Source: Alphaproteobacteria bacterium UBA6038 (GTDB lineage Bacteria > Pseudomonadota > Alphaproteobacteria > Micropepsales > Micropepsaceae). Taken from it: 64,000 nt of DNA. Each line of letters opens with the position of its first letter. Position 1 is the stretch's first letter. The notes under the pieces are model-generated. The model was not told the origin of the DNA, did no database searches, and saw only the letters and a program-made list of their open reading frames with translations. The stretch covers positions 6,055-70,054 of the forward strand of contig DIZC01000104.1 of NCBI GenBank assembly GCA_002429315.1, given 5' to 3'. This document shows, piece by piece, positions 7,289-63,663 of this stretch. A program made the translations under genes and the position numbers.

Positions 7289-8196
7289 GCAGCATGCCGG
7301 ATGTCGCACGGACGCGGCGTGCTCCGCCCGATCGCGGGCAGGGCGATGCCTGGCGCGAGCGCTTCAAATTCAACATGGACTGGATCACGCGGCCGCTGTT
7401 CGGTTTCCTGCTCGCGGGAATTGCCGTCGGCGCGACAATCTTGGGCGGCCTCGCCTTCGTCGTGTTTCTGTCGCTCGGCTGCGCCGCCGCGATCCGGGAA
7501 TGGCACCGGCTGTTTGCCAAGCGCGACTTCCTGCTCCCGACCGCCATCACGGTGCTCACGATGGTCGCCGCGCTTTGGTGGCAGCTGTATTTCGCACCGG
7601 CGGGAGGCCCGGCAGCACACCTCGGCGTAGTCGCGATCCTGCTCATCGGATGTTTGTGCAATCTGCTCGTGGGCGCCTGGCGCCGTGAAGCGCCGTTGGC
7701 GCACGCGGCCGGTCCTCTGTACATCGCCCTTCCGGCCTTGTCGCTTTTGATATTGCGGCAATCGCCGGAGCATCCTGTGTGGCTGGTGTTGATGGTGTTC
7801 CTGGCGGTGTGGGCGACGGACACCGGCGCGCTCTTCAGCGGAAACCTGATCGGCGGGCCCAAGCTTGCGCCGACGCTGTCGCCCAACAAAACTTGGGCGG
7901 GGTTCTTCGGCGGCACGGCGTGCGCGGCCGTGATCACGGGCGCGGTCGCCGCGGCGCTGAAAACGGACATACCGGTTGCAGCGATGTTCGGCGTTGCGCT
8001 CGCGCTGGCGGGACACGCCGGCGACCTGTTCGAATCGATGATCAAGCGCCGCGTGGGCCGAAAGGACAGCGGCGGGCTGATACCTGGTCATGGCGGGGTG
8101 CTCGACCGGATCGATTCGATTCTGTTCGCCGCACCGGCCGCGGCCGTATTGGTGCTTGTCTTTGCTCTCGATCCGCTTGCAGGGTATCGGCCGTGA
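7285..8196 (+). CDS. cdsA: Phosphatidate cytidylyltransferase
   Basis: Multi-TM; SPNKTWAG, GDLFESMIKR, KDSGGLIPGHGGVLDRIDS; ATGA overlap with uppS stop. Confidence 0.96.
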   Translation: MSSMPDVARTRRAPPDRGQGDAWRERFKFNMDWITRPLFGFLLAGIAVGATILGGLAFVVFLSLGCAAAIREWHRLFAKRDFLLPTAITVLTMVAALWWQLYFAPAGGPAAHLGVVAILLIGCLCNLLVGAWRREAPLAHAAGPLYIALPALSLLILRQSPEHPVWLVLMVFLAVWATDTGALFSGNLIGGPKLAPTLSPNKTWAGFFGGTACAAVITGAVAAALKTDIPVAAMFGVALALAGHAGDLFESMIKRRVGRKDSGGLIPGHGGVLDRIDSILFAAPAAAVLVLVFALDPLAGYRP

Positions 8197-10624: not shown

Positions 10625-12997
10625 ATGAGCCTGATCGCCTTCCCTTTCGCCCGATACGCACGCGCGGCCGCTGCGGTTGTGCTGCTTTCGCCTGGTGTCG
10701 GTGCCATTGCGCAGGAACAAAACCCGGCGCCATCGGCTCCGGCCGCCGAATCACGTCCGCCCGGTCCGGTCATTCGCGACATTCGCGTGCGCGGCACGCA
10801 GCGAATCGAGCCCGGCACGGTCCTGTCCTATATGTCGATCCGCCCGGGCGACTCGTACGATGAACAGATTGTCGACCGGTCGCTGAAAACGCTATTCGCC
10901 ACCGGCCTTTTCGCCGACGTCAAGATCAATTGGGACGGCTCAATTCTGACGATCAACGTCGTCGAAAACCCGATCATCAACCGGGTCGTGTTCGAGGGCG
11001 AAAGCAAGGTTTCCGAAAAGGACCTGACGAAAGAGGTTCAGCTGAAGCCGCGGATGGTATTCACCCGCGCCAAGGTCCAGGCCGACGTCCAACGGATCAT
11101 CGAGTTGTACCGCAGAAACGGCAAATTCGCCGCGACGGTCGACCCCGAGATCATTCAGCGCCCGCAAAATCGTGTGGATCTCATCTTCTCGATCAACGAA
11201 GGGCCCACGACCGGCGTGGCGCGCATTTCGTTCATCGGCAACAAGGTGTTCGATGACGACACGCTGAAGAGCCAGATCGCGACCGAGGAGTCGGAGTGGT
11301 GGAAATTTCTCTCCAGCAACGACAATTACGATCCGGACCGGCTGACGTTCGACCGCGAGCAGCTGCGGCGCTTCTATCTGAAGAACGGCTATGCCGATTT
11401 CCGGGTGGTCTCGGCCGTGGCCGAACTGACGCCCGACCGCGAGAACTTCTTTATCACCTTCACCGTGGACGAAGGCCCGATCTATACGTTCGGAAAGGTC
11501 GTCATCAATTCGAAGATCAAGGAGCTGTATCCGGCGAGTCTGCGTCCGCTCATCCCGATCGTGGAAGGCAAGACCTACAATGCCGAACTGATCGACAAGT
11601 CCATCGACGCCCTGACGAACGCCGCCGGAACCAAGGGCTACGCCTTTGCGGAGATTCATCCGCGAATCGCCCGCAACCGCTCGAACCATACGATCGGTGT
11701 CGTTTTCGACATCGATCAGGGCCCCCGCGTGTATATCGAAAAGATCAACATCACCGGGAACACCCGCACGCTCGACAAGGTCATCCGCCGCGAATTCCGG
11801 CTGGTCGAGGGAGATGCATTCAACCGGGTGCTCGTCGACCGCTCGCGCACCCGCATCCGGTCCCTGGGCTTCTTCAAGGACGTCGATATCAAGCCTGTGC
11901 CAGGCTCGCAACCGGATCGAACGGTGCTGAACGTGAACGTCACCGAGCAATCGACCGGCGAGTTGCAGTTGGGCGTCGGCTATTCGTCGACCAGTTCTTT
12001 CGTGGGGCAGTTCAGCTATACCGAACGCAATCTGTTCGGCCGCGCGCAATACCTTCGCGCCAGCATTTCGCTTTCGAGCATCAGCAAGGAAGCCGTCCTC
12101 AGCTTCACCGAACCTTATTTCCTGGACCGGCCATTGTCCGCCGGTTTCGACATCTACAAGATCATCACGGATTTCCAGCAGGCGACTTATCAGAGCGATA
12201 CGGACGCCATTGGATTGCGGCTTGGCTTCCCGACATCGGAATACGGCAGCGTTGGATTGCGCTACACCTACCGGATTGACAACATCACGCCGTTCTCGAA
12301 CTCGCCTTCGGCCATCTTGCTCGCCGCGGGGACGGAAGACACCTCTTCGATCGGCTATACCTACGCCTACAACACGCTGGACGATCCCATTAAGCCGCGG
12401 CGGGGGCTCACTTTCCAGATATCGCAAGACTTTGCGGGACTCGGCGGCAGTTTGAAATACTTGCGATCCCAAGCCGCCTTCAGCTACCGGCGTCCCGTGT
12501 TGTGGGATGAATTCATCCTGACGGTGTCCGGGAACGGCGGCTACATCAATGGTTACGATGGGGAGCATGTCCGGTTGAACGAGCGCTTCTTCAGAGGCGG
12601 CGACACGTTCCGCGGATTCCAGATTGCCGGCGTTGGGCCCCGCGAGCTTTTCGCCGGGCATAACTCGGCTCTGGGAGCGGAGGCGTACGCGATAGGCACG
12701 ATCGACCTCCGGTTGCCGGATTTTCTGCCAGCTGACTACGGGATCAGCGCCTCCCTGTTCACGGATTTCGGAACGGCCGGCCATATCGCCTCGCAGCCGG
12801 GCCTGAAGACCTGCGGTGAGGTCGGGCCGCGGACGCCCTGCATCGTGGATAATATGGGGCTGCGCGCTTCGGGCGGCATAGCCATCGGCTGGAAGTCGCC
12901 CTTTGGGCCAGTAGAAATTGATCTCGGAGTGCCGTACATCAAGCAGAGTTACGACAAGACCGAAATCATTCGATTCAGCGCAGGGACAGGACTCTAA
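10625..12997 (+). CDS. bamA: Outer membrane protein assembly factor BamA
   Basis: Signal peptide, POTRA repeats (IEKINITGNTRTLDKVIRREF), FRGF loop motif, C-terminal SPFGPV...FSAGT. Confidence 0.97.
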   Translation: MSLIAFPFARYARAAAAVVLLSPGVGAIAQEQNPAPSAPAAESRPPGPVIRDIRVRGTQRIEPGTVLSYMSIRPGDSYDEQIVDRSLKTLFATGLFADVKINWDGSILTINVVENPIINRVVFEGESKVSEKDLTKEVQLKPRMVFTRAKVQADVQRIIELYRRNGKFAATVDPEIIQRPQNRVDLIFSINEGPTTGVARISFIGNKVFDDDTLKSQIATEESEWWKFLSSNDNYDPDRLTFDREQLRRFYLKNGYADFRVVSAVAELTPDRENFFITFTVDEGPIYTFGKVVINSKIKELYPASLRPLIPIVEGKTYNAELIDKSIDALTNAAGTKGYAFAEIHPRIARNRSNHTIGVVFDIDQGPRVYIEKINITGNTRTLDKVIRREFRLVEGDAFNRVLVDRSRTRIRSLGFFKDVDIKPVPGSQPDRTVLNVNVTEQSTGELQLGVGYSSTSSFVGQFSYTERNLFGRAQYLRASISLSSISKEAVLSFTEPYFLDRPLSAGFDIYKIITDFQQATYQSDTDAIGLRLGFPTSEYGSVGLRYTYRIDNITPFSNSPSAILLAAGTEDTSSIGYTYAYNTLDDPIKPRRGLTFQISQDFAGLGGSLKYLRSQAAFSYRRPVLWDEFILTVSGNGGYINGYDGEHVRLNERFFRGGDTFRGFQIAGVGPRELFAGHNSALGAEAYAIGTIDLRLPDFLPADYGISASLFTDFGTAGHIASQPGLKTCGEVGPRTPCIVDNMGLRASGGIAIGWKSPFGPVEIDLGVPYIKQSYDKTEIIRFSAGTGL

Positions 12998-13001
12998 ATC
13001 G

Positions 13002-13658
13002 ATGAACAGAACGACCATTTCAGGCCGAGCGGTGCTCAGTGTAGCGGCGCTTCTGATCGCATTTGCCGCCGCCAGCGCAGTGCAGGCTGCCGCCCCACCC
13101 GCGAAGCCGGGCGCTCCTCCCGCCAATGCCGCCGCGCCGGTGCCCAAAATATTGGTCATCGATCGCAATGTGATCCTTCGCGCATCGAAGGTTGGCCAGG
13201 ACATCGTCCGCCAGGTCAACGGCTACACCCAGAGTGCAGAGGCGGAGTTCAAAGCCGAGGGTAACGCCCTTCAAAACGAGGCCCGTGCGCTACAGCAGCA
13301 GGTCGCGATACTGGCGCCCGACGTGAAGGCAAGAAAGATTCGCGATTTTCAGGCGAAGCAGGCCGGTTTCCAGCGCAAAGTGGAAGCCAGGCAAGGCCTG
13401 ATTCAAGGCGGGGTGTTCAAGGCCAGGCAGCAGGTGGAAGCGGCTCTGGGACCGATTCTCCAGGGCATCATGCAGGAGCGCGGCGCAAATCTTCTGCTCG
13501 ATCGCACCGCGGTCGTGCTGGGGACCGTCAATGTCGACATCACCGCCGTCGCCGTTCAGCGGCTCGACCAGCGAATGCCGTCGATCAAGGTGCAACTCGT
13601 CGCGCTGCCCGCTGGACTGCAGGCGCAGATGATGCAGCAGCAGGCGCAGCGCCGCTAA
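13002..13658 (+). CDS. skp: OmpH/Skp periplasmic chaperone
   Basis: Signal peptide, coiled coil, [10 protein letters not shown]...VDIT C-terminal motif; lies between bamA and lpxD. Confidence 0.88.
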
Positions 13659-13674
13659 CGCGGCGCCACACCTC

Positions 13675-14706
13675 GTGGCTGATCCTCGCTTCTACAGCAA
13701 TCGTGGGCCGGTCAGCCTTGCCGAAATCTGCGCGCGCCTCGGGGTGGAAATTCCGGTCGAGGCGCCTGCCGATGCTTGGGTCGTCGACGTGGCCACGGTC
13801 GACGGCGCAGGACCGGAGCATCTCGTGTTCTGTGCTGGGAAGGCCGGCGCAAATCTGCTTCCCCGCTCGCTGGCCGGCTATGCGCTCGTCGAATCCGGCT
13901 TGAGCATCGCGCCGCCTCAGCGGATGATGATCTTGAAGGTCGCCTCGCCCACAAGCGCGTTTGGGACCGTGGCCCGGCTTCTCTATCCGGATCACGGTCT
14001 GTCCCAATGGGATCAGAAGGAGGCGATCAGTCCGGCGGCGAACATCGGAGAATGTGTTCGCGTAGCGCCGGGGGCGGTCATCGGGCCGGATGCGGAAATC
14101 GGCGATCATACGTGCATCGGGGCGAACGCGGTGATCGGTCCCGGCGTGGCGATTGGGCGCAATTCCGAAATCGGCAGCAATGTCACGATCACGCATTCTT
14201 ATGCGGGTGACGAAGTCCTGATCCTGTCCGGAGCGCAGATCGGGCAGCCGGGCTTCGGTTTCGCCTCCGGCGCGGGCGGTCACGCCAAAATCCCGCAGCT
14301 TGGGCGCGTGATCGTGCAGGACCGCGTTGAAATCGGCGCCTGCACGACAATCGACCGCGGCGCGCTTGGCGACACGGTCATCGGCGAAGGGACGAAAATC
14401 GACAATCTCGTGCAGATCGGCCACAACTGCCGCATTGGGCGGCACTGCGTCATCGTTGGGCAGGTCGGAGTATCGGGCAGCTGCGAATTGGGAGATTTTG
14501 TCGTGCTCGGCGGTCAGGTCGGTCTCGCAGACCATGTGAAGATCGGCGACGGAGCGCGGCTGGCCGCGCGCTCGGCGCTGGCGCCCGGTGAGCTTCCCGG
14601 CGGACAGGACTACGGTGGCGTGCCAGCCCGGCCCATCAAGGAATGGCGGAGGCAAATGGCGGCAATTGCGCGCCTCGGCCAGCCACGCAAACAGAATGTC
14701 GGCTAG
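13675..14706 (+). CDS. lpxD: UDP-3-O-acyl-glucosamine N-acyltransferase
   Basis: GTG start MADPRFY; hexapeptide repeats, [21 protein letters not shown]. Confidence 0.96.
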
Positions 14707-23806: not shown

Positions 23807-23861
23807 GAACAAAGCCGCAACAATCCGCAATTGTTCTAGTTAGGTTCCGATGATGCGTCAA
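23807..23861 (-). promoter_or_regulatory. lexA promoter with SOS boxes
   Basis: Perfect GTTC-N7-GTTC at 23833-23847; one-mismatch GAAC-N7-CAAC at 23807-23821; minus-strand TTGACG (23856-23861), 17 nt, TAGAAC (23833-23838). Confidence 0.88.
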
Positions 23862-60262: not shown

Positions 60263-60736
60263 ATGGCTAAAAAGAAGGACGACGGGCGGAAGGTCGTAGC
60301 CGACAACCGCAAGGCGCGCTACGCCTACGCCATCGAGTCGACGCTCGAGGCCGGGCTGCAGCTGATGGGCTCGGAGGTGAAGAGCTTGCGCTCCGGCAAG
60401 GCGAACATCGGCGAATCCTATGCGCAGGCGAAGGACGGCGAGATCTTTCTCGTCAACGCCTATATCCCCGAATACACCATGGCCAACCGCTTCAATCACG
60501 AGCCGCGGCGGCCGCGCAAGCTGCTGGTACACAAGGGCGAAGCGAAGAAGCTGTCGATCGCCATCCAGCGCGAGGGCATGACGCTGATTCCGTTGCGCGT
60601 TTATTTCACGCCCAAGGGTGTCGCGAAATGCGAGTTGGGCGTGGCGCGCGGCAAGAAGCTGCACGACAAGCGCGAGACGGAAAAACAGCGCGACTGGCAG
60701 CGCGACAAGGCTCGCCTGATGCGCCAGAAGGGGTGA
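60263..60736 (+). CDS. smpB: SsrA-binding protein
   Basis: [41 protein letters not shown]. Confidence 0.98.
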
Positions 60737-60834
60737 ACCGCGAATCGCGAATGGCGAGTAGCGGGCGGGAATCGGAACTGTTCGGCGAAGAGTGACCCCG
60801 CGCCAAGTCCGCCGCGCCGCCAAATTTTCGATCT

Positions 60835-60945
60835 CACGCGGAGGTCGCGGAGGTCGCGGAGAAAGAAGACTCCCCATCTCCTGGCGCCGATCGGAGTCGC
60901 ATCGCACGTTGATGATTCCCTCCGCGCCTCCGCGTCCTCCGCGTG
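60835..60945. repeat. REP-like inverted repeat (CACGCGGAG family)
   Basis: CACGCGGAGGTCGCGGAGGTCGCGGAG (60835-60861) vs reverse complement of 60920-60945 CACGCGGAGGACGCGGAGGCGCGGAG. Confidence 0.8.
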
Positions 60946-60999
60946 CCAAAGTTGTTTTCACGCGGTGCCGCAAAGAACGCGGAGGAGATTCGCGGTGCT

Positions 61000-61243
61000 T
61001 CAACACCGCGAGCAGTTCAACAAGTCTCGTGCGCTTCGCGTTCAGTTCCCGCAGCGCGAGTTCGAAATGGGCGCGGGCGAGGAGGGCGCGGGTTTCGCGC
61101 CGCCATTGCGCGATGCGGCGACGGATTGCTTTGCACTCGGCCGTATACCGTCCATGCTTCAGCCGGTTGCGGTTGCCGGGTGGCGCTCCCACCCGTGGGT
61201 GCCACACGTCCTCTGGACGCAACATCTTGAACGTTGAAGTCAC
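61000..61243 (-). CDS. Probable small protein with GAPxGNxNxxKHG motif; 3' end undefined
   Basis: GTGA overlap with upstream stop; GAPPGNRNRLKHGRYT then a basic helix; frame stays open through repeats to 59945, so the end given is approximate. Confidence 0.45.
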
Positions 61244-61527
61244 TGTTGCATTGACCGGGGGGAGGGGGGCCTCTCATCCTGCCCGCCTTCATGCTGAATG
61301 ATCTGGCGCAGCTGCTTTTCGTCCGGCTGCAAGCCGCCGCGCAAACGCCCAACCATCTTCGCGACATTGGCCGATGAGTTCATCATCGAGACGATGCGGT
61401 CCATGAAGTTGTTGCAGTTGTACGGATCGGTGTCGTTGCGCGCGACGTAGTGGGCGAGGTGGTCGATAATACCGACGCACGTGGCGATCTGCCTCTCCAG
61501 CAGCACATCCGTACTGCCTTCCGGCAC
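61240..61527 (-). CDS. Hypothetical protein, about 95 aa (or C-terminal half of a frameshifted gene)
   Basis: Host-like codons, DVLLERQIATCVGIIDHLAHY; possible GTG at 61527 two nt after the upstream TGA. Confidence 0.55.
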   Translation of the reverse strand: MPEGSTDVLLERQIATCVGIIDHLAHYVARNDTDPYNCNNFMDRIVSMMNSSANVAKMVGRLRGGLQPDEKQLRQIIQHEGGQDERPPSPRSMQQ

Positions 61528-61529
61528 TC

Positions 61530-61859
61530 TCAGCGGCGGCAGCCGACCGTTGATGTCGCCTGTTGTTTCGTGCTGCCGGTTTCGAAACCGTAGCCGTGAT
61601 CGAGGGCATCTGCGGTATTTGCGTAACCGGCCTTCTCGGCCTCCGATGTGTCGGCGGCCGGCCATGTCGGGCAGCCTCGCGGAATGTACGGCTTCCCCTC
61701 CTCTCGGGCGAACGCCTCGTCGGCCCTGTCGAGCTGATAGTCTTTGAACCGGAACGCGTCCTCGTCCGAGAGGTGCGCGGGCACCCGCATATCGTGGATT
61801 TCCGCGGCTGTTTTGCCTTCGAACATAGCCGCCCATTCCGGCGGGATTCCCTGTTCCAT
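61530..61859 (-). CDS. Hypothetical protein, 109 aa, downstream of an SOS box
   Basis: AAGGGAG RBS 9 nt before ATG 61859; clear promoter upstream. Confidence 0.7.
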   Translation of the reverse strand: MEQGIPPEWAAMFEGKTAAEIHDMRVPAHLSDEDAFRFKDYQLDRADEAFAREEGKPYIPRGCPTWPAADTSEAEKAGYANTADALDHGYGFETGSTKQQATSTVGCRR

Positions 61860-61881
61860 GTGTTTGCACTCCCTTGTTGAG

Positions 61882-61915
61882 GAACCAATATGGAACGCGG
61901 ATAGTAGGATGTCAA
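61882..61915 (-). promoter_or_regulatory. Sigma70-like promoter with LexA box over the -10
   Basis: Minus strand TTGACA (61910-61915), 17 nt, CATATT (61887-61892); GTTC-catattg-GTTC at 61882-61896. Confidence 0.85.
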
Positions 61916-62036
61916 GCTGAGATAGGACAATTAGGTCTGAAATGTTCGGTCATATCGCGCCATCTACATTAATATTCCGCCTATTATCCTATTCTCTCGG
62001 TCTCGCCGACGGGCCGGCGGCGTGCGAGGCTGAAGC

Positions 62037-62708
62037 ATGGGCGAGGACGAGAAGCCGGGTCTGGGCGGGCAAAGCAGAGACAAACTCATCCGCTCCAAGG
62101 AGAAATGGGCGGAGGAGGGGCGGCTGCTGACCGGTGCGCCCGATCCGGCGCATCGCAACCGCCTGCCGCCGGGGCAGCGCGAAGTGAAGACCTGGCCGGT
62201 GCTCGACCTCGGCGGGCAGCCGGACGTGAAGCCGGAGAACTGGCGCTTGCAGGTGCTGGGGCTGGTGGAGAATCCGGTGGCGCTGACGCTGACGCAGTTC
62301 ATGGCGCTGCCGCAGACGGAATTGGTGAGCGACATTCACTGCGTCACCGCATGGAGTCGCTTCGACAATCGTTGGCAGGGCGTTGCGAGCCGCACGTTGC
62401 TGGAACTGGTGAAGCCGAAGCCTGAGACGCGCCACGTCGTGTTCCATTCTTACGATGGGTACACCACGAACGTGCGGCTGCCGGTGTTCGCAGAGGACGA
62501 CGTGCTGCTGGCGCATTCCTGGGAGGGCAAGCCGCTCGCCCGCGAGCATGGCGGCCCGGTGCGCGTGGTGATCCCGCGCTGGTATTTCTGGAAGAGCGCC
62601 AAATGGGTGACGCGCATCGTGTTCCACGAACGCGATCGTCCCGGCTTCTGGGAAACCCGCGGCTACCACAACGACGGCGACCCGTGGAACGAGGAGCGGT
62701 ATTCGTAA
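62037..62708 (+). CDS. Sulfite oxidase-like molybdopterin oxidoreductase
   Basis: RLPPGQ, WPVLDLG, DIHCVTAWS (Mo-binding Cys), EHGGPVR, WKSAKW, GFWETRGYH; no Tat signal seen. Confidence 0.92.
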   Translation: MGEDEKPGLGGQSRDKLIRSKEKWAEEGRLLTGAPDPAHRNRLPPGQREVKTWPVLDLGGQPDVKPENWRLQVLGLVENPVALTLTQFMALPQTELVSDIHCVTAWSRFDNRWQGVASRTLLELVKPKPETRHVVFHSYDGYTTNVRLPVFAEDDVLLAHSWEGKPLAREHGGPVRVVIPRWYFWKSAKWVTRIVFHERDRPGFWETRGYHNDGDPWNEERYS

Positions 62709-62880: not shown

Positions 62881-63519
62881 TCAACGTTCTGCCGCTTCTT
62901 TCGCCGCGCGCATGACGTCCTCGAACATCGCCGTCGTGAGGACGCCGGTGTTGGTGTTGAGGCGGGAGCAGTGATAGCTGGAAAGCAGCGTGACGCGTTC
63001 CAGCGCGCGCGACGCGCCGTGCGCGAACGTGTGGTCCTTTTTGGAAACGGCAAGCGCGCTGGACACGCTGTCATGCGCGATCCTGCCCAGCGACAGGATC
63101 GCGCGCAGGTTCGGCATGCTGTCGATGGTGGCCTTCAGGAATGGACGGCAGGTGTTGACCTCCGTCGGTAGCGGCTTGTTCTCCGGCGGCACGCAGCGCA
63201 CCGCGTTGGTGATGGCGCAGTCGATCAGCTCGAGGCCGTCGTCGGCGCGCTCGCCATAGGTGCCGCGCGCCAGCCCCAGCTTGCGCAAGGTGCCGTAGAG
63301 CAGCACCCCGGCGTAATCGCCGGTGAAGGGGCGGCCGGTGCGGTTGGCGCCGTGCAGCCCCGGCGCAAGGCCTACGATCAGCAGCCGCGCGTCGCGCGGG
63401 CCGAAGGTGGGCACCGGATCGTTGAAGTGATCGGGAAAACGCGCGCGGTTCTCATGGCGAAAAGCGTGCAGCCGCGGGCACAGCGGACAATCGCGCGGCG
63501 GCTCATGCGACGATTCCAT
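62881..63519 (-). CDS. Uracil-DNA glycosylase, Fe-S family 5 (UdgB-like)
   Basis: CPLCPRL, GLAPGLHGANRTGRPFTGD, CVPPENKP, YHCSRLNTNTG. Confidence 0.93.
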   Translation of the reverse strand: MESSHEPPRDCPLCPRLHAFRHENRARFPDHFNDPVPTFGPRDARLLIVGLAPGLHGANRTGRPFTGDYAGVLLYGTLRKLGLARGTYGERADDGLELIDCAITNAVRCVPPENKPLPTEVNTCRPFLKATIDSMPNLRAILSLGRIAHDSVSSALAVSKKDHTFAHGASRALERVTLLSSYHCSRLNTNTGVLTTAMFEDVMRAAKEAAER

Positions 63520-63663
63520 TAGTGACTCTAGGCGCCTCCATCGTGGTGGCGCGGGTGGGGGCGCGACTTCCATAGCGCGATGAAGGTTCGCCTAACTACA
63601 CTAGCGCGTCGCCCTCCTCGCATAGGGCACTGGAAAGGCTATTCTGTCGAACCTGAGGTTCTT

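Follow-up and report, generated by a model that had tools for sequence, protein, structure and literature searches.

What does a promoter with a LexA box control when the open reading frames (ORFs) behind it resemble nothing familiar? The question is raised by a short cassette next to smpB in Alphaproteobacteria bacterium UBA6038 (contig DIZC01000104.1 of assembly GCA_002429315.1), an uncultured organism whose SmpB is 75–95% identical to those of Rhizomicrobium genomes including R. electricum. The DNA analysed, hereafter the window, is a 64-kb stretch of this contig to which all coordinates refer, and the cassette promoter, gene A and gene B all lie on its minus strand. A sequence-only reading had described the cassette as an orphan operon of three genes, newly assigned to the SOS regulon and acting perhaps as a division inhibitor, a toxin-antitoxin pair or a domesticated phage module. 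The reading favoured here, to which we give a probability of roughly 55%, is that a LexA-repressed promoter drives a translationally coupled cassette of two genes, A and B, that their products form a complex and that the whole is a phage-derived module triggered by DNA damage, present here in a partly eroded copy. To our knowledge, genes A and B belong to no described SOS regulon.

The promoter and its LexA box

The promoter had been read as TTGACA-17 nt-CATATT with a perfect GTTC-N7-GTTC box over the -10 hexamer, followed by a ribosome binding site and an ATG. Both renewed reading of the sequence and a consensus scan bear this out (Table 1), the scan returning TTGACA-17 nt-CATATT as the sole sigma-70-like site in 60600–62100, with 10 of 12 positions matching. 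GTTC-N7-GTTC is the direct-repeat LexA box of Alphaproteobacteria, known from work on Rhodobacter, Rhizobium and Caulobacter. It is said to have been described in Rhodobacter sphaeroides, Sinorhizobium/Rhizobium and Caulobacter crescentus by Fernandez de Henestrosa in 1998, Tapias and Barbe in 1999, Erill in 2004 and da Rocha in 2008. The motif is also mentioned in excerpts of two articles (PMC8565304; PMC3323433). The bare count of GTTC-N7-GTTC in the window alone is not significant, with four sites found against 2.0 expected and at least four in 17 of 100 shuffles, so that the significance of the box has to come from where it lies, from a spacer rich in A/T and from its retention in relatives, not from the motif count. 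That the same geometry recurs at the lexA promoter of the window is approximately right: the lexA box (23833–23847), too, is flanked by a -35-like hexamer, TTGACG, on one side and the gene on the other, yet it is found on the strand opposite to lexA, and the two arrangements are alike without being identical.

Across the whole assembly (G000; 3.5 Mb in 133 contigs), 82 GTTC-N7-GTTC sites were counted, 19 of them with a spacer holding at least five A/T against about 6 expected by chance, so that the class with AT-rich spacers is about threefold over-represented. The genes immediately preceded by boxes of this class include lexA (TIGR00498, above cut-off), ssb, an ImuA-like gene and a PA0069-family radical-SAM gene, and at several sites the spacer itself is -10-like (CTATAAT or CTATACT). 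recA differs from lexA, ssb and imuA in that its box (GAACGAAACATGCAC, 7/8), about 35 nt before the ORF (contig C78, ~7490–7505), is imperfect.

The box is also found in front of gene A elsewhere. A perfect copy lies 30–39 nt before the gene A start in 10 of the 20 related loci (the window, L003, L007, L011, L012, L014, L015, L020, L021 and L022) and a copy with one mismatch in L016; these boxes are usually preceded by TTGACA or a near-match, the exact -35 hexamer being kept in L007, L011, L012, L014 and L020. A more distant cassette at the 3' end of smpB (L158) is boxed as well. The search for paralogs with SOS boxes that had been suggested was productive, as a paralogous cassette on contig C110 of the same genome carries the box and a second copy of gene B on contig C77 lies behind an SOS-boxed operon. 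Because the box is conserved in place at related loci and the same motif stands at canonical SOS genes of the genome (lexA, ssb, imuA and the radical-SAM gene), the predicted LexA regulation of the cassette promoter is well supported, and the proposed membership in the SOS regulon gains comparative support. The cassette thus shows the features of a predicted LexA regulon member: a box within the promoter, a box before orthologues, and the motif at lexA and core SOS genes.

The alternative, that the box is a fortuitous match and LexA does not control the promoter, would sit well with the lack of enrichment of the bare pattern in the window and with the relatives that have no box. However, perfect boxes at the same offset in half of the 20 loci and in several diverged subfamilies go beyond chance, and the over-represented AT-rich-spacer class marks canonical SOS genes, which makes a fortuitous match very improbable.

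Two further boxes with AT-rich spacers were seen outside the window, at C47:8103 (+) and C71:2075 (+). One lies directly upstream of a SIR2_2-domain gene, the other between a dCMP-deaminase-like gene and a dCTP-deaminase-like gene with a low GC content at third codon positions (GC3); these genes may be SOS-controlled and defence-like.

Gene A and the frameshift in its linker

All three ORFs of the supposed operon (109 aa, about 95 aa and one with a KHG motif) exist, but the first two together make up one gene. What had been taken for three orphan genes is a gene A that belongs to a small family and is split here by a frameshift, and a gene B, the KHG ORF, that belongs to a very large one. The 95-aa frame (61240–61527 as called by gene callers, with a GTG start at 61527) matches proteins of 176–189 aa whose last 100 residues correspond to it, while the N-termini of the same proteins (M..IPPEWA..F.GKT) correspond to residues 1–40 of the 109-aa ORF. 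The second half, ORF2, is 86% identical to residues 82–177 of the intact 177-aa protein P0002, the first half, ORF1 (P0010), matches positions 1–54 of the gene A family profile, and in relatives from eight further loci gene A is a single unbroken ORF of 170–215 aa. GC3 is 0.87–0.93 in the ORF1 frame down to ~61700 and 0.8–1.0 in the other frame from ~61540, and the second frame shows homology from 61545 on, which places the frameshift at ~61545–61650.

The frameshift, which falls in a disordered linker, is real. An assembly error was considered and rejected, as the identical split into 109 and 95 residues is present in two independent ENA assemblies and as Logan contigs of two soil runs cover 61200–61960 at ~15x with no differences. 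In L015, a syntenic relative, a frameshift of its own interrupts the linker at a different position. Programmed -1 frameshifting was likewise rejected, because reading of 61545–61650 revealed no X XXY YYZ slippery heptamer and because the shift in L015 lies elsewhere; the other relatives are unshifted.

Structure prediction, one of the checks that had been proposed, was carried out with AlphaFold2 (AF2) and gives a partial answer. Gene A is modelled as two helical regions joined by a disordered linker: in the intact P0002 an N-terminal helical domain (predicted local distance difference test, pLDDT, 90–95) is followed by a disordered linker at residues 52–90 (pLDDT 47–61) and a C-terminal helical hairpin at residues 92–148 (pLDDT 73–83). 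The product of gene B is modelled as a single helix, and gene A finds no fold match in the PDB, neither by sequence profile nor by Foldseek with the model. Since the splits in the window and in L015 both fall inside the linker and since a GTG follows 2 nt after the ORF1 stop, the two domains of gene A could be made separately.

Pairwise comparison with seven loci gave ratios of nonsynonymous to synonymous substitution rates (dN/dS) of 0.21–0.50 for the N-terminal part of gene A, 0.10–0.33 for its C-terminal half (0.10 against L010) and 0.06–0.23 for gene B. Such values, 0.06–0.5 overall, clearly point to purifying selection on both halves of gene A and on gene B. Scans of ORF1, ORF2, gene B and intact relatives against Pfam, PHROGs, NCBIfam and PADLOC assigned no family, their only matches being a sub-threshold one of gene B to a TerS motif and a weak one of the intact gene A relative P0004 to PHROG 4094, and a tblastn search with gene A against plasmids returned no match.

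Gene B and its kinship with phage small terminases

Gene B begins with a GTG (61243) that overlaps the TGA stop of gene A (61242–61240) as GTGA, a junction that is almost invariant across loci. At several loci ATA stands in place of the ATG of gene B, yet the TSTxK residues before it are kept, and the GTG that overlaps the gene A stop is therefore the true start. The homologues measure 63–130 aa, the majority falling at 72–101 aa where a stop codon was called, and share the motif MLRPEDVWHPRxGAPxGNRNRLKHGRxT followed by a helix, the core carrying GNRNxLKHG. In the AF2 model the first 25 residues, which hold the motif, are flexible and residues 26–78 form the helix (pLDDT 94–98). The core is strongly basic (isoelectric point 11.8, charge +12), and the products of the cassette have grand average of hydropathy (GRAVY) values of -0.66 to -0.92 and are modelled as soluble helices. 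A division inhibitor of the SidA/DidA type, which would be a small hydrophobic membrane protein, was rejected on this hydrophilicity, and with it one of the functions first proposed for the cassette.

Several observations concern the junction and the copies of gene B. Conservation of the junction sequence TGACTTCAAC.TTCAAGATGTTGCG extends to synonymous sites. Just before the gene A stop and gene B start lies a 13-nt C6TC6 tract (61255–61267) that is also present in L007, L010, L011, L014–L017, L020 and L022, in either orientation depending on the locus; its G-rich form supplies a GGAGG Shine-Dalgarno sequence for the GTG of gene B, and the window has the C-rich form. In one predicted protein, P0034, A and B are naturally fused. 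A solo gene B (MLRPEDVWHPR...) without gene A, retaining about 30 nt of the gene A 3' end, is located on contig C77 (reverse, ~12816–14700), after the SOS-boxed PA0069 radical-SAM gene and a glyoxalase/VOC (vicinal oxygen chelate) gene and before rnhB.

The 3' side of gene B is less orderly. Its frame meets no stop until 59945 and runs for 432 codons, through a GC-rich hairpin and then antisense across smpB; relatives, too, have unconserved gene B tails of varied and often considerable length. The hairpin has a 28-bp GC stem and no U-tract and is probably a terminator or an element of the repetitive extragenic palindromic (REP) type. L011, L015 and L016 have shorter GC hairpins at the corresponding place, and an Rfam scan of 60600–62100 returned only chance miRNA-type matches on the hairpin.

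With gene A split and gene B without a nearby stop codon, this copy is partly eroded, and it may be asked whether it is a decaying remnant in which a working promoter feeds a frameshifted gene A and an improperly ended gene B and no useful product results. Such decay would account for the genuine frameshift, for the separate one in the linker of the syntenic L015, for the 432-codon frame that crosses the hairpin and smpB, and for the absence of the cassette from this site in most related genomes. However, both halves of gene A and the core of gene B have stayed open and show high GC3 in their proper frames, and dN/dS against the closest intact relative is low (0.10 for the C-terminal half of gene A, 0.07 for gene B). 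Moreover, both splits spare the folded domains, which could still function separately, a GTG is at hand just past the ORF1 stop, and long unconstrained tails of gene B are common among relatives. A mere remnant is on balance unlikely, if still deserving of some weight.

The missing stop also allows for RNA as the main output, an SOS transcript running through gene B into smpB and acting as an antisense brake on trans-translation. The cassette does converge on smpB in the window, L011, L015, L016, L020 and L022, and the hairpin in between lacks a U-tract; yet genes A and B are clearly under selection at the protein level, the cassettes of L007 and L014 lie away from smpB, and a 28-bp GC stem would probably stop transcription. 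Of all readings considered here, this one appears the least probable.

The phage-derived nature of the cassette in the favoured reading stems from gene B only, and of the functions suggested at the outset a domesticated phage module is the best supported, with the core of gene B homologous to a segment of phage small terminases (TerS). The connection runs through HGGxSTG domain-containing proteins (NF041373). A tblastn search with gene B led to such a protein on a Pseudosulfitobacter plasmid, where it is preceded by a hypothetical gene of 200 aa. When the gene B family profile was aligned by hhalign with a profile of nine HGGxSTG proteins, it matched their C-terminal half with 98.5% probability (E 2.8e-15) over GAPxGNxNALKHGxYT and the following helix. 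The plasmid protein matches NF041373 at E 5e-13, which gene B does not, and with the same segment it matches the TerS families PHROG 9231 (E 3.8e-8), PHROG 1889 (E 2.2e-6) and NF040601 (E 3.5e-6). Ralstonia phage Hyacinthe has, immediately before terL and portal, a gene (QMV33436; PHROG 1889, E 1e-16) that starts with a zinc ribbon and NQNARKHGIYS. As the direct TerS match of gene B is weak, the link to TerS is transitive, by way of the HGGxSTG proteins. The proteins P0021 and P0015 gave no match to TerS profiles, nor did tblastn of gene B against phages return one.

The likeness to HGGxSTG proteins extends to gene order. As exemplified by WP_089422665 and its partner WP_089422666 on pSMR1-1, these proteins share with gene B the C-terminal GAPxGNxNALKHGxYT and helix, and both they and gene B have a tightly coupled helical partner gene immediately upstream (~200 aa in the HGGxSTG loci). 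They differ in that HGGxSTG proteins carry a 38-residue Cys/His domain where gene B has its MLRPEDVWHPR N-terminus, in that their partner genes are not detectably homologous to gene A, and in that the HGGxSTG loci examined, unlike the A-B cassette, have no LexA box. Homology between gene A and the HGGxSTG partner gene did not reach significance. A conserved AACAACCCCATGCAC.GTAGAAT was noticed ~60–80 nt before the HGGxSTG partner gene in L034, L043, L044 and L051, which represent several distant Alphaproteobacteria. A literature search found no paper on the GNxNALKHG/HGGxSTG family.

Phage TerS proteins (PHROG 1889/9231, NF040601; QMV33436) have in common with gene B the xNxNAxKHGxYS motif and the helix. 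They are 180–280 aa long, and gene B would correspond to ~45 residues of this; it lacks a DNA-binding domain as well as the C-terminal part, and neither terL nor portal lies beside it. Thus, gene B possesses the shared GNxNxxKHG motif and helix and lacks a full-length TerS match, adjacency to terL or portal, and a helix-turn-helix or zinc ribbon of its own. Because the direct match reaches only E 0.04–0.05 and both a DNA-binding domain and a terL neighbour are missing, gene B is therefore to be seen as a putative fragment-sized relative of a TerS segment and not as a terminase.

A TerS-related gene under LexA control has a counterpart in staphylococcal phage satellites, the Staphylococcus pathogenicity islands (SaPI), whose operon I is presented in an excerpt of PMC5052747, citing Ubeda 2007, as a LexA-repressed packaging and interference module with terS. 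Like operon I, going by that excerpt, the cassette would place a TerS-related gene under LexA and be switched on when prophages are induced. Unlike it, the cassette comes with no satellite island (no integrase, replication, capsid-remodelling or other packaging genes), occurs in a different phylum and has a fragment-sized gene B, and the likeness would be one in logic only.

A bolder idea is that the A-B cassettes, together with the HGGxSTG/GNxNALKHG mini-proteins and their partners, are unrecognised terminase-derived modules of the host or minimal selfish elements, with gene B as a TerS mimic that is made with gene A at prophage induction, enters or binds TerS assemblies and poisons or redirects packaging. 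We consider this speculative and quite unlikely to hold as stated; if true, the cassette would be a two-gene LexA-triggered anti-phage or hitch-hiking device that does without the other genes of phage satellites.

Setting, distribution and proposed role

The position given for the cassette, between smpB and a uracil-DNA glycosylase (UDG) region, is confirmed by Pfam matches of the neighbours (Table 1). A gap of 5–50 nt separates smpB from the molybdopterin oxidoreductase gene in many genomes of Rhizomicrobium; in the window the gap is 1.3 kb and contains the cassette. The cassette is absent from this site in most related genomes, and in L007 and L014 it is found elsewhere. At the same junction (window 60737–62036; L098–L177), other genomes have variable inserts of 0.2–2 kb with A-B, B-like genes or REP-like palindromes, and the smpB 3' junction appears to be a recurrent insertion spot. 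Near the cassette, no integrase or phage genes (Pfam) and no tRNA or tmRNA were found; its GC content matches that of the genome, and no clear terminal inverted repeats surround the insert. The sole candidate for a boundary is a weak 14-nt direct repeat (60772–60785 and 61936–61949) that may be due to chance.

Table 1. Positions of the cassette features and neighbouring genes in the window
Feature	Position	Strand	Remarks
-35 hexamer TTGACA	61910..61915	-	Sequence reading and sigma-70 consensus scan
-10 hexamer CATATT	61887..61892	-	17-nt spacing from -35; inside LexA box spacer
LexA (SOS) box GTTCCATATTGGTTC	61882..61896	-	Perfect GTTC-N7-GTTC direct repeat covering the -10
Shine-Dalgarno GGGAG	61869..61873	-	9 nt before ATG 61859; sequence reading
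Gene A start ATG	61859-61857	-	Sequence reading
Gene A N-terminal half (ORF1, 109 aa)	61530..61859	-	Residues 1-40 MEQGIPPEWAAMFEGKT, the family N-terminal helical domain; then linker to premature TGA
Gene A C-terminal half (ORF2), -1 frame	61240..61545	-	Helical hairpin; motif NFMDRIxSMMNSSANVAKMVGRLRG
Gene B conserved core, ~71 aa	61031..61243	-	MTSTFKMLRPEDVWHPRVGAPPGNRNRLKHGRYT, then long basic helix
GC-rich hairpin, 110 nt, of 9-nt CGCGGAGGT repeats	60835..60945	.	Between gene B core and convergent smpB; inside open gene B frame; z -3.9
SmpB gene	60263-60736	+	Pfam
Molybdopterin oxidoreductase gene	62037-62708	+	Pfam
UDG-family gene	62881-63573	-	Pfam

When 1.84 billion representative proteins were scanned in full with HMMER, 88 clusters were obtained for gene A, and the cassette is rare and largely confined to Rhizomicrobium-like soil Alphaproteobacteria. 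Motifs of the gene B type are far commoner: one scan turned up 80 loci, often in Rhizomicrobium and with several to a genome, and the present genome has 21 motif ORFs. Contigs C15, C17, C55, C60, C91, C92, C127 and C130 have ORFs with two GAPxGNRNALKHG motifs, several of them at contig ends; between the paired motifs lie two or three 'FSPNK(S/R/T)NNSVA' units, which sets these ORFs apart as a separate multicopy subfamily. In addition, a palindromic element of ~140 nt resembling REP sequences or miniature inverted-repeat transposable elements (MITEs) is present on more than 30 contigs (e.g. C91 7574–7701, C110 23511–23651).

Multiplicity of this kind bears on the proposal of a toxin-antitoxin pair, in which gene A would encode a partly disordered two-domain antitoxin and gene B a small basic toxin, forming an addiction cassette tied to the SOS response. 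In Caulobacter, transcription of higBA is tied to the SOS response. Two small genes overlapping by four bases, an acidic to neutral and partly disordered upstream protein with a very basic downstream one, the 21 motif ORFs of the gene B type in the genome, and cassettes in varied contexts that include plasmids, beside toxin-antitoxin and integrase genes, would all suit such a system. On the other hand, none of the toxin, antitoxin or defence families in Pfam, NCBIfam, PHROGs or PADLOC is matched, a gene A product of 170–215 aa with no recognisable DNA-binding fold is large for an antitoxin, and a natural A-B fusion and a solo gene B would be unusual for a toxin-antitoxin pair. This part of the original proposal thus retains a small share of credence and is, in our view, unlikely.

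For the LexA-controlled A-B module that we favour, the following course may be envisaged, in which the switching step draws on established SOS biology and on the conserved box. In the undamaged cell, LexA bound to GTTC-N7-GTTC over the -10 hexamer would block RNA polymerase; upon DNA damage, RecA-stimulated self-cleavage of LexA would free the promoter. Genes A and B would then be translated in a coupled manner through the GTGA overlap and their products would act as a complex, in which the helix of B would pack against the hairpin of A and the basic surface of B would most likely bind nucleic acid or a TerS-type oligomer. We infer from this a phage-derived module that DNA damage or prophage induction would switch on.

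Several points weigh against this reading. The box is absent from L006, L010, L017, L018 and L019, and a search for RNA-seq runs containing the stretch found none. Pfam, NCBIfam, PDB profile search and Foldseek connect gene A to no protein whose function or fold is known, and the alignment of its family with the HGGxSTG partner gene by hhalign reaches E 0.05. The direct TerS profile matches of gene B (E 0.039 and 0.054, over 16 residues) are below threshold, and among the neighbours of the cassette assigned by Pfam there is no terL, portal or other phage gene. The A-B fusion is known from one predicted protein, P0034, and an assembly error might explain it. Finally, with a split gene A and a gene B that lacks a stop, the copy in the window may no longer work.

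Taken together, the analysis adds a conserved, previously unannotated operon to the predicted SOS regulon of Rhizomicrobium (Micropepsales), a poorly studied soil lineage, and would link LexA control to a mini-protein derived from phage small terminase. The locus further illustrates that gene splits inside a disordered linker can arise more than once, and the smpB 3' end emerges as a probable recurrent landing site for such cassettes. As the GNxNALKHG/HGGxSTG family is very common in Alphaproteobacteria, the boxed subfamily with its clear partner gene may offer a practical handle on the function of the family.

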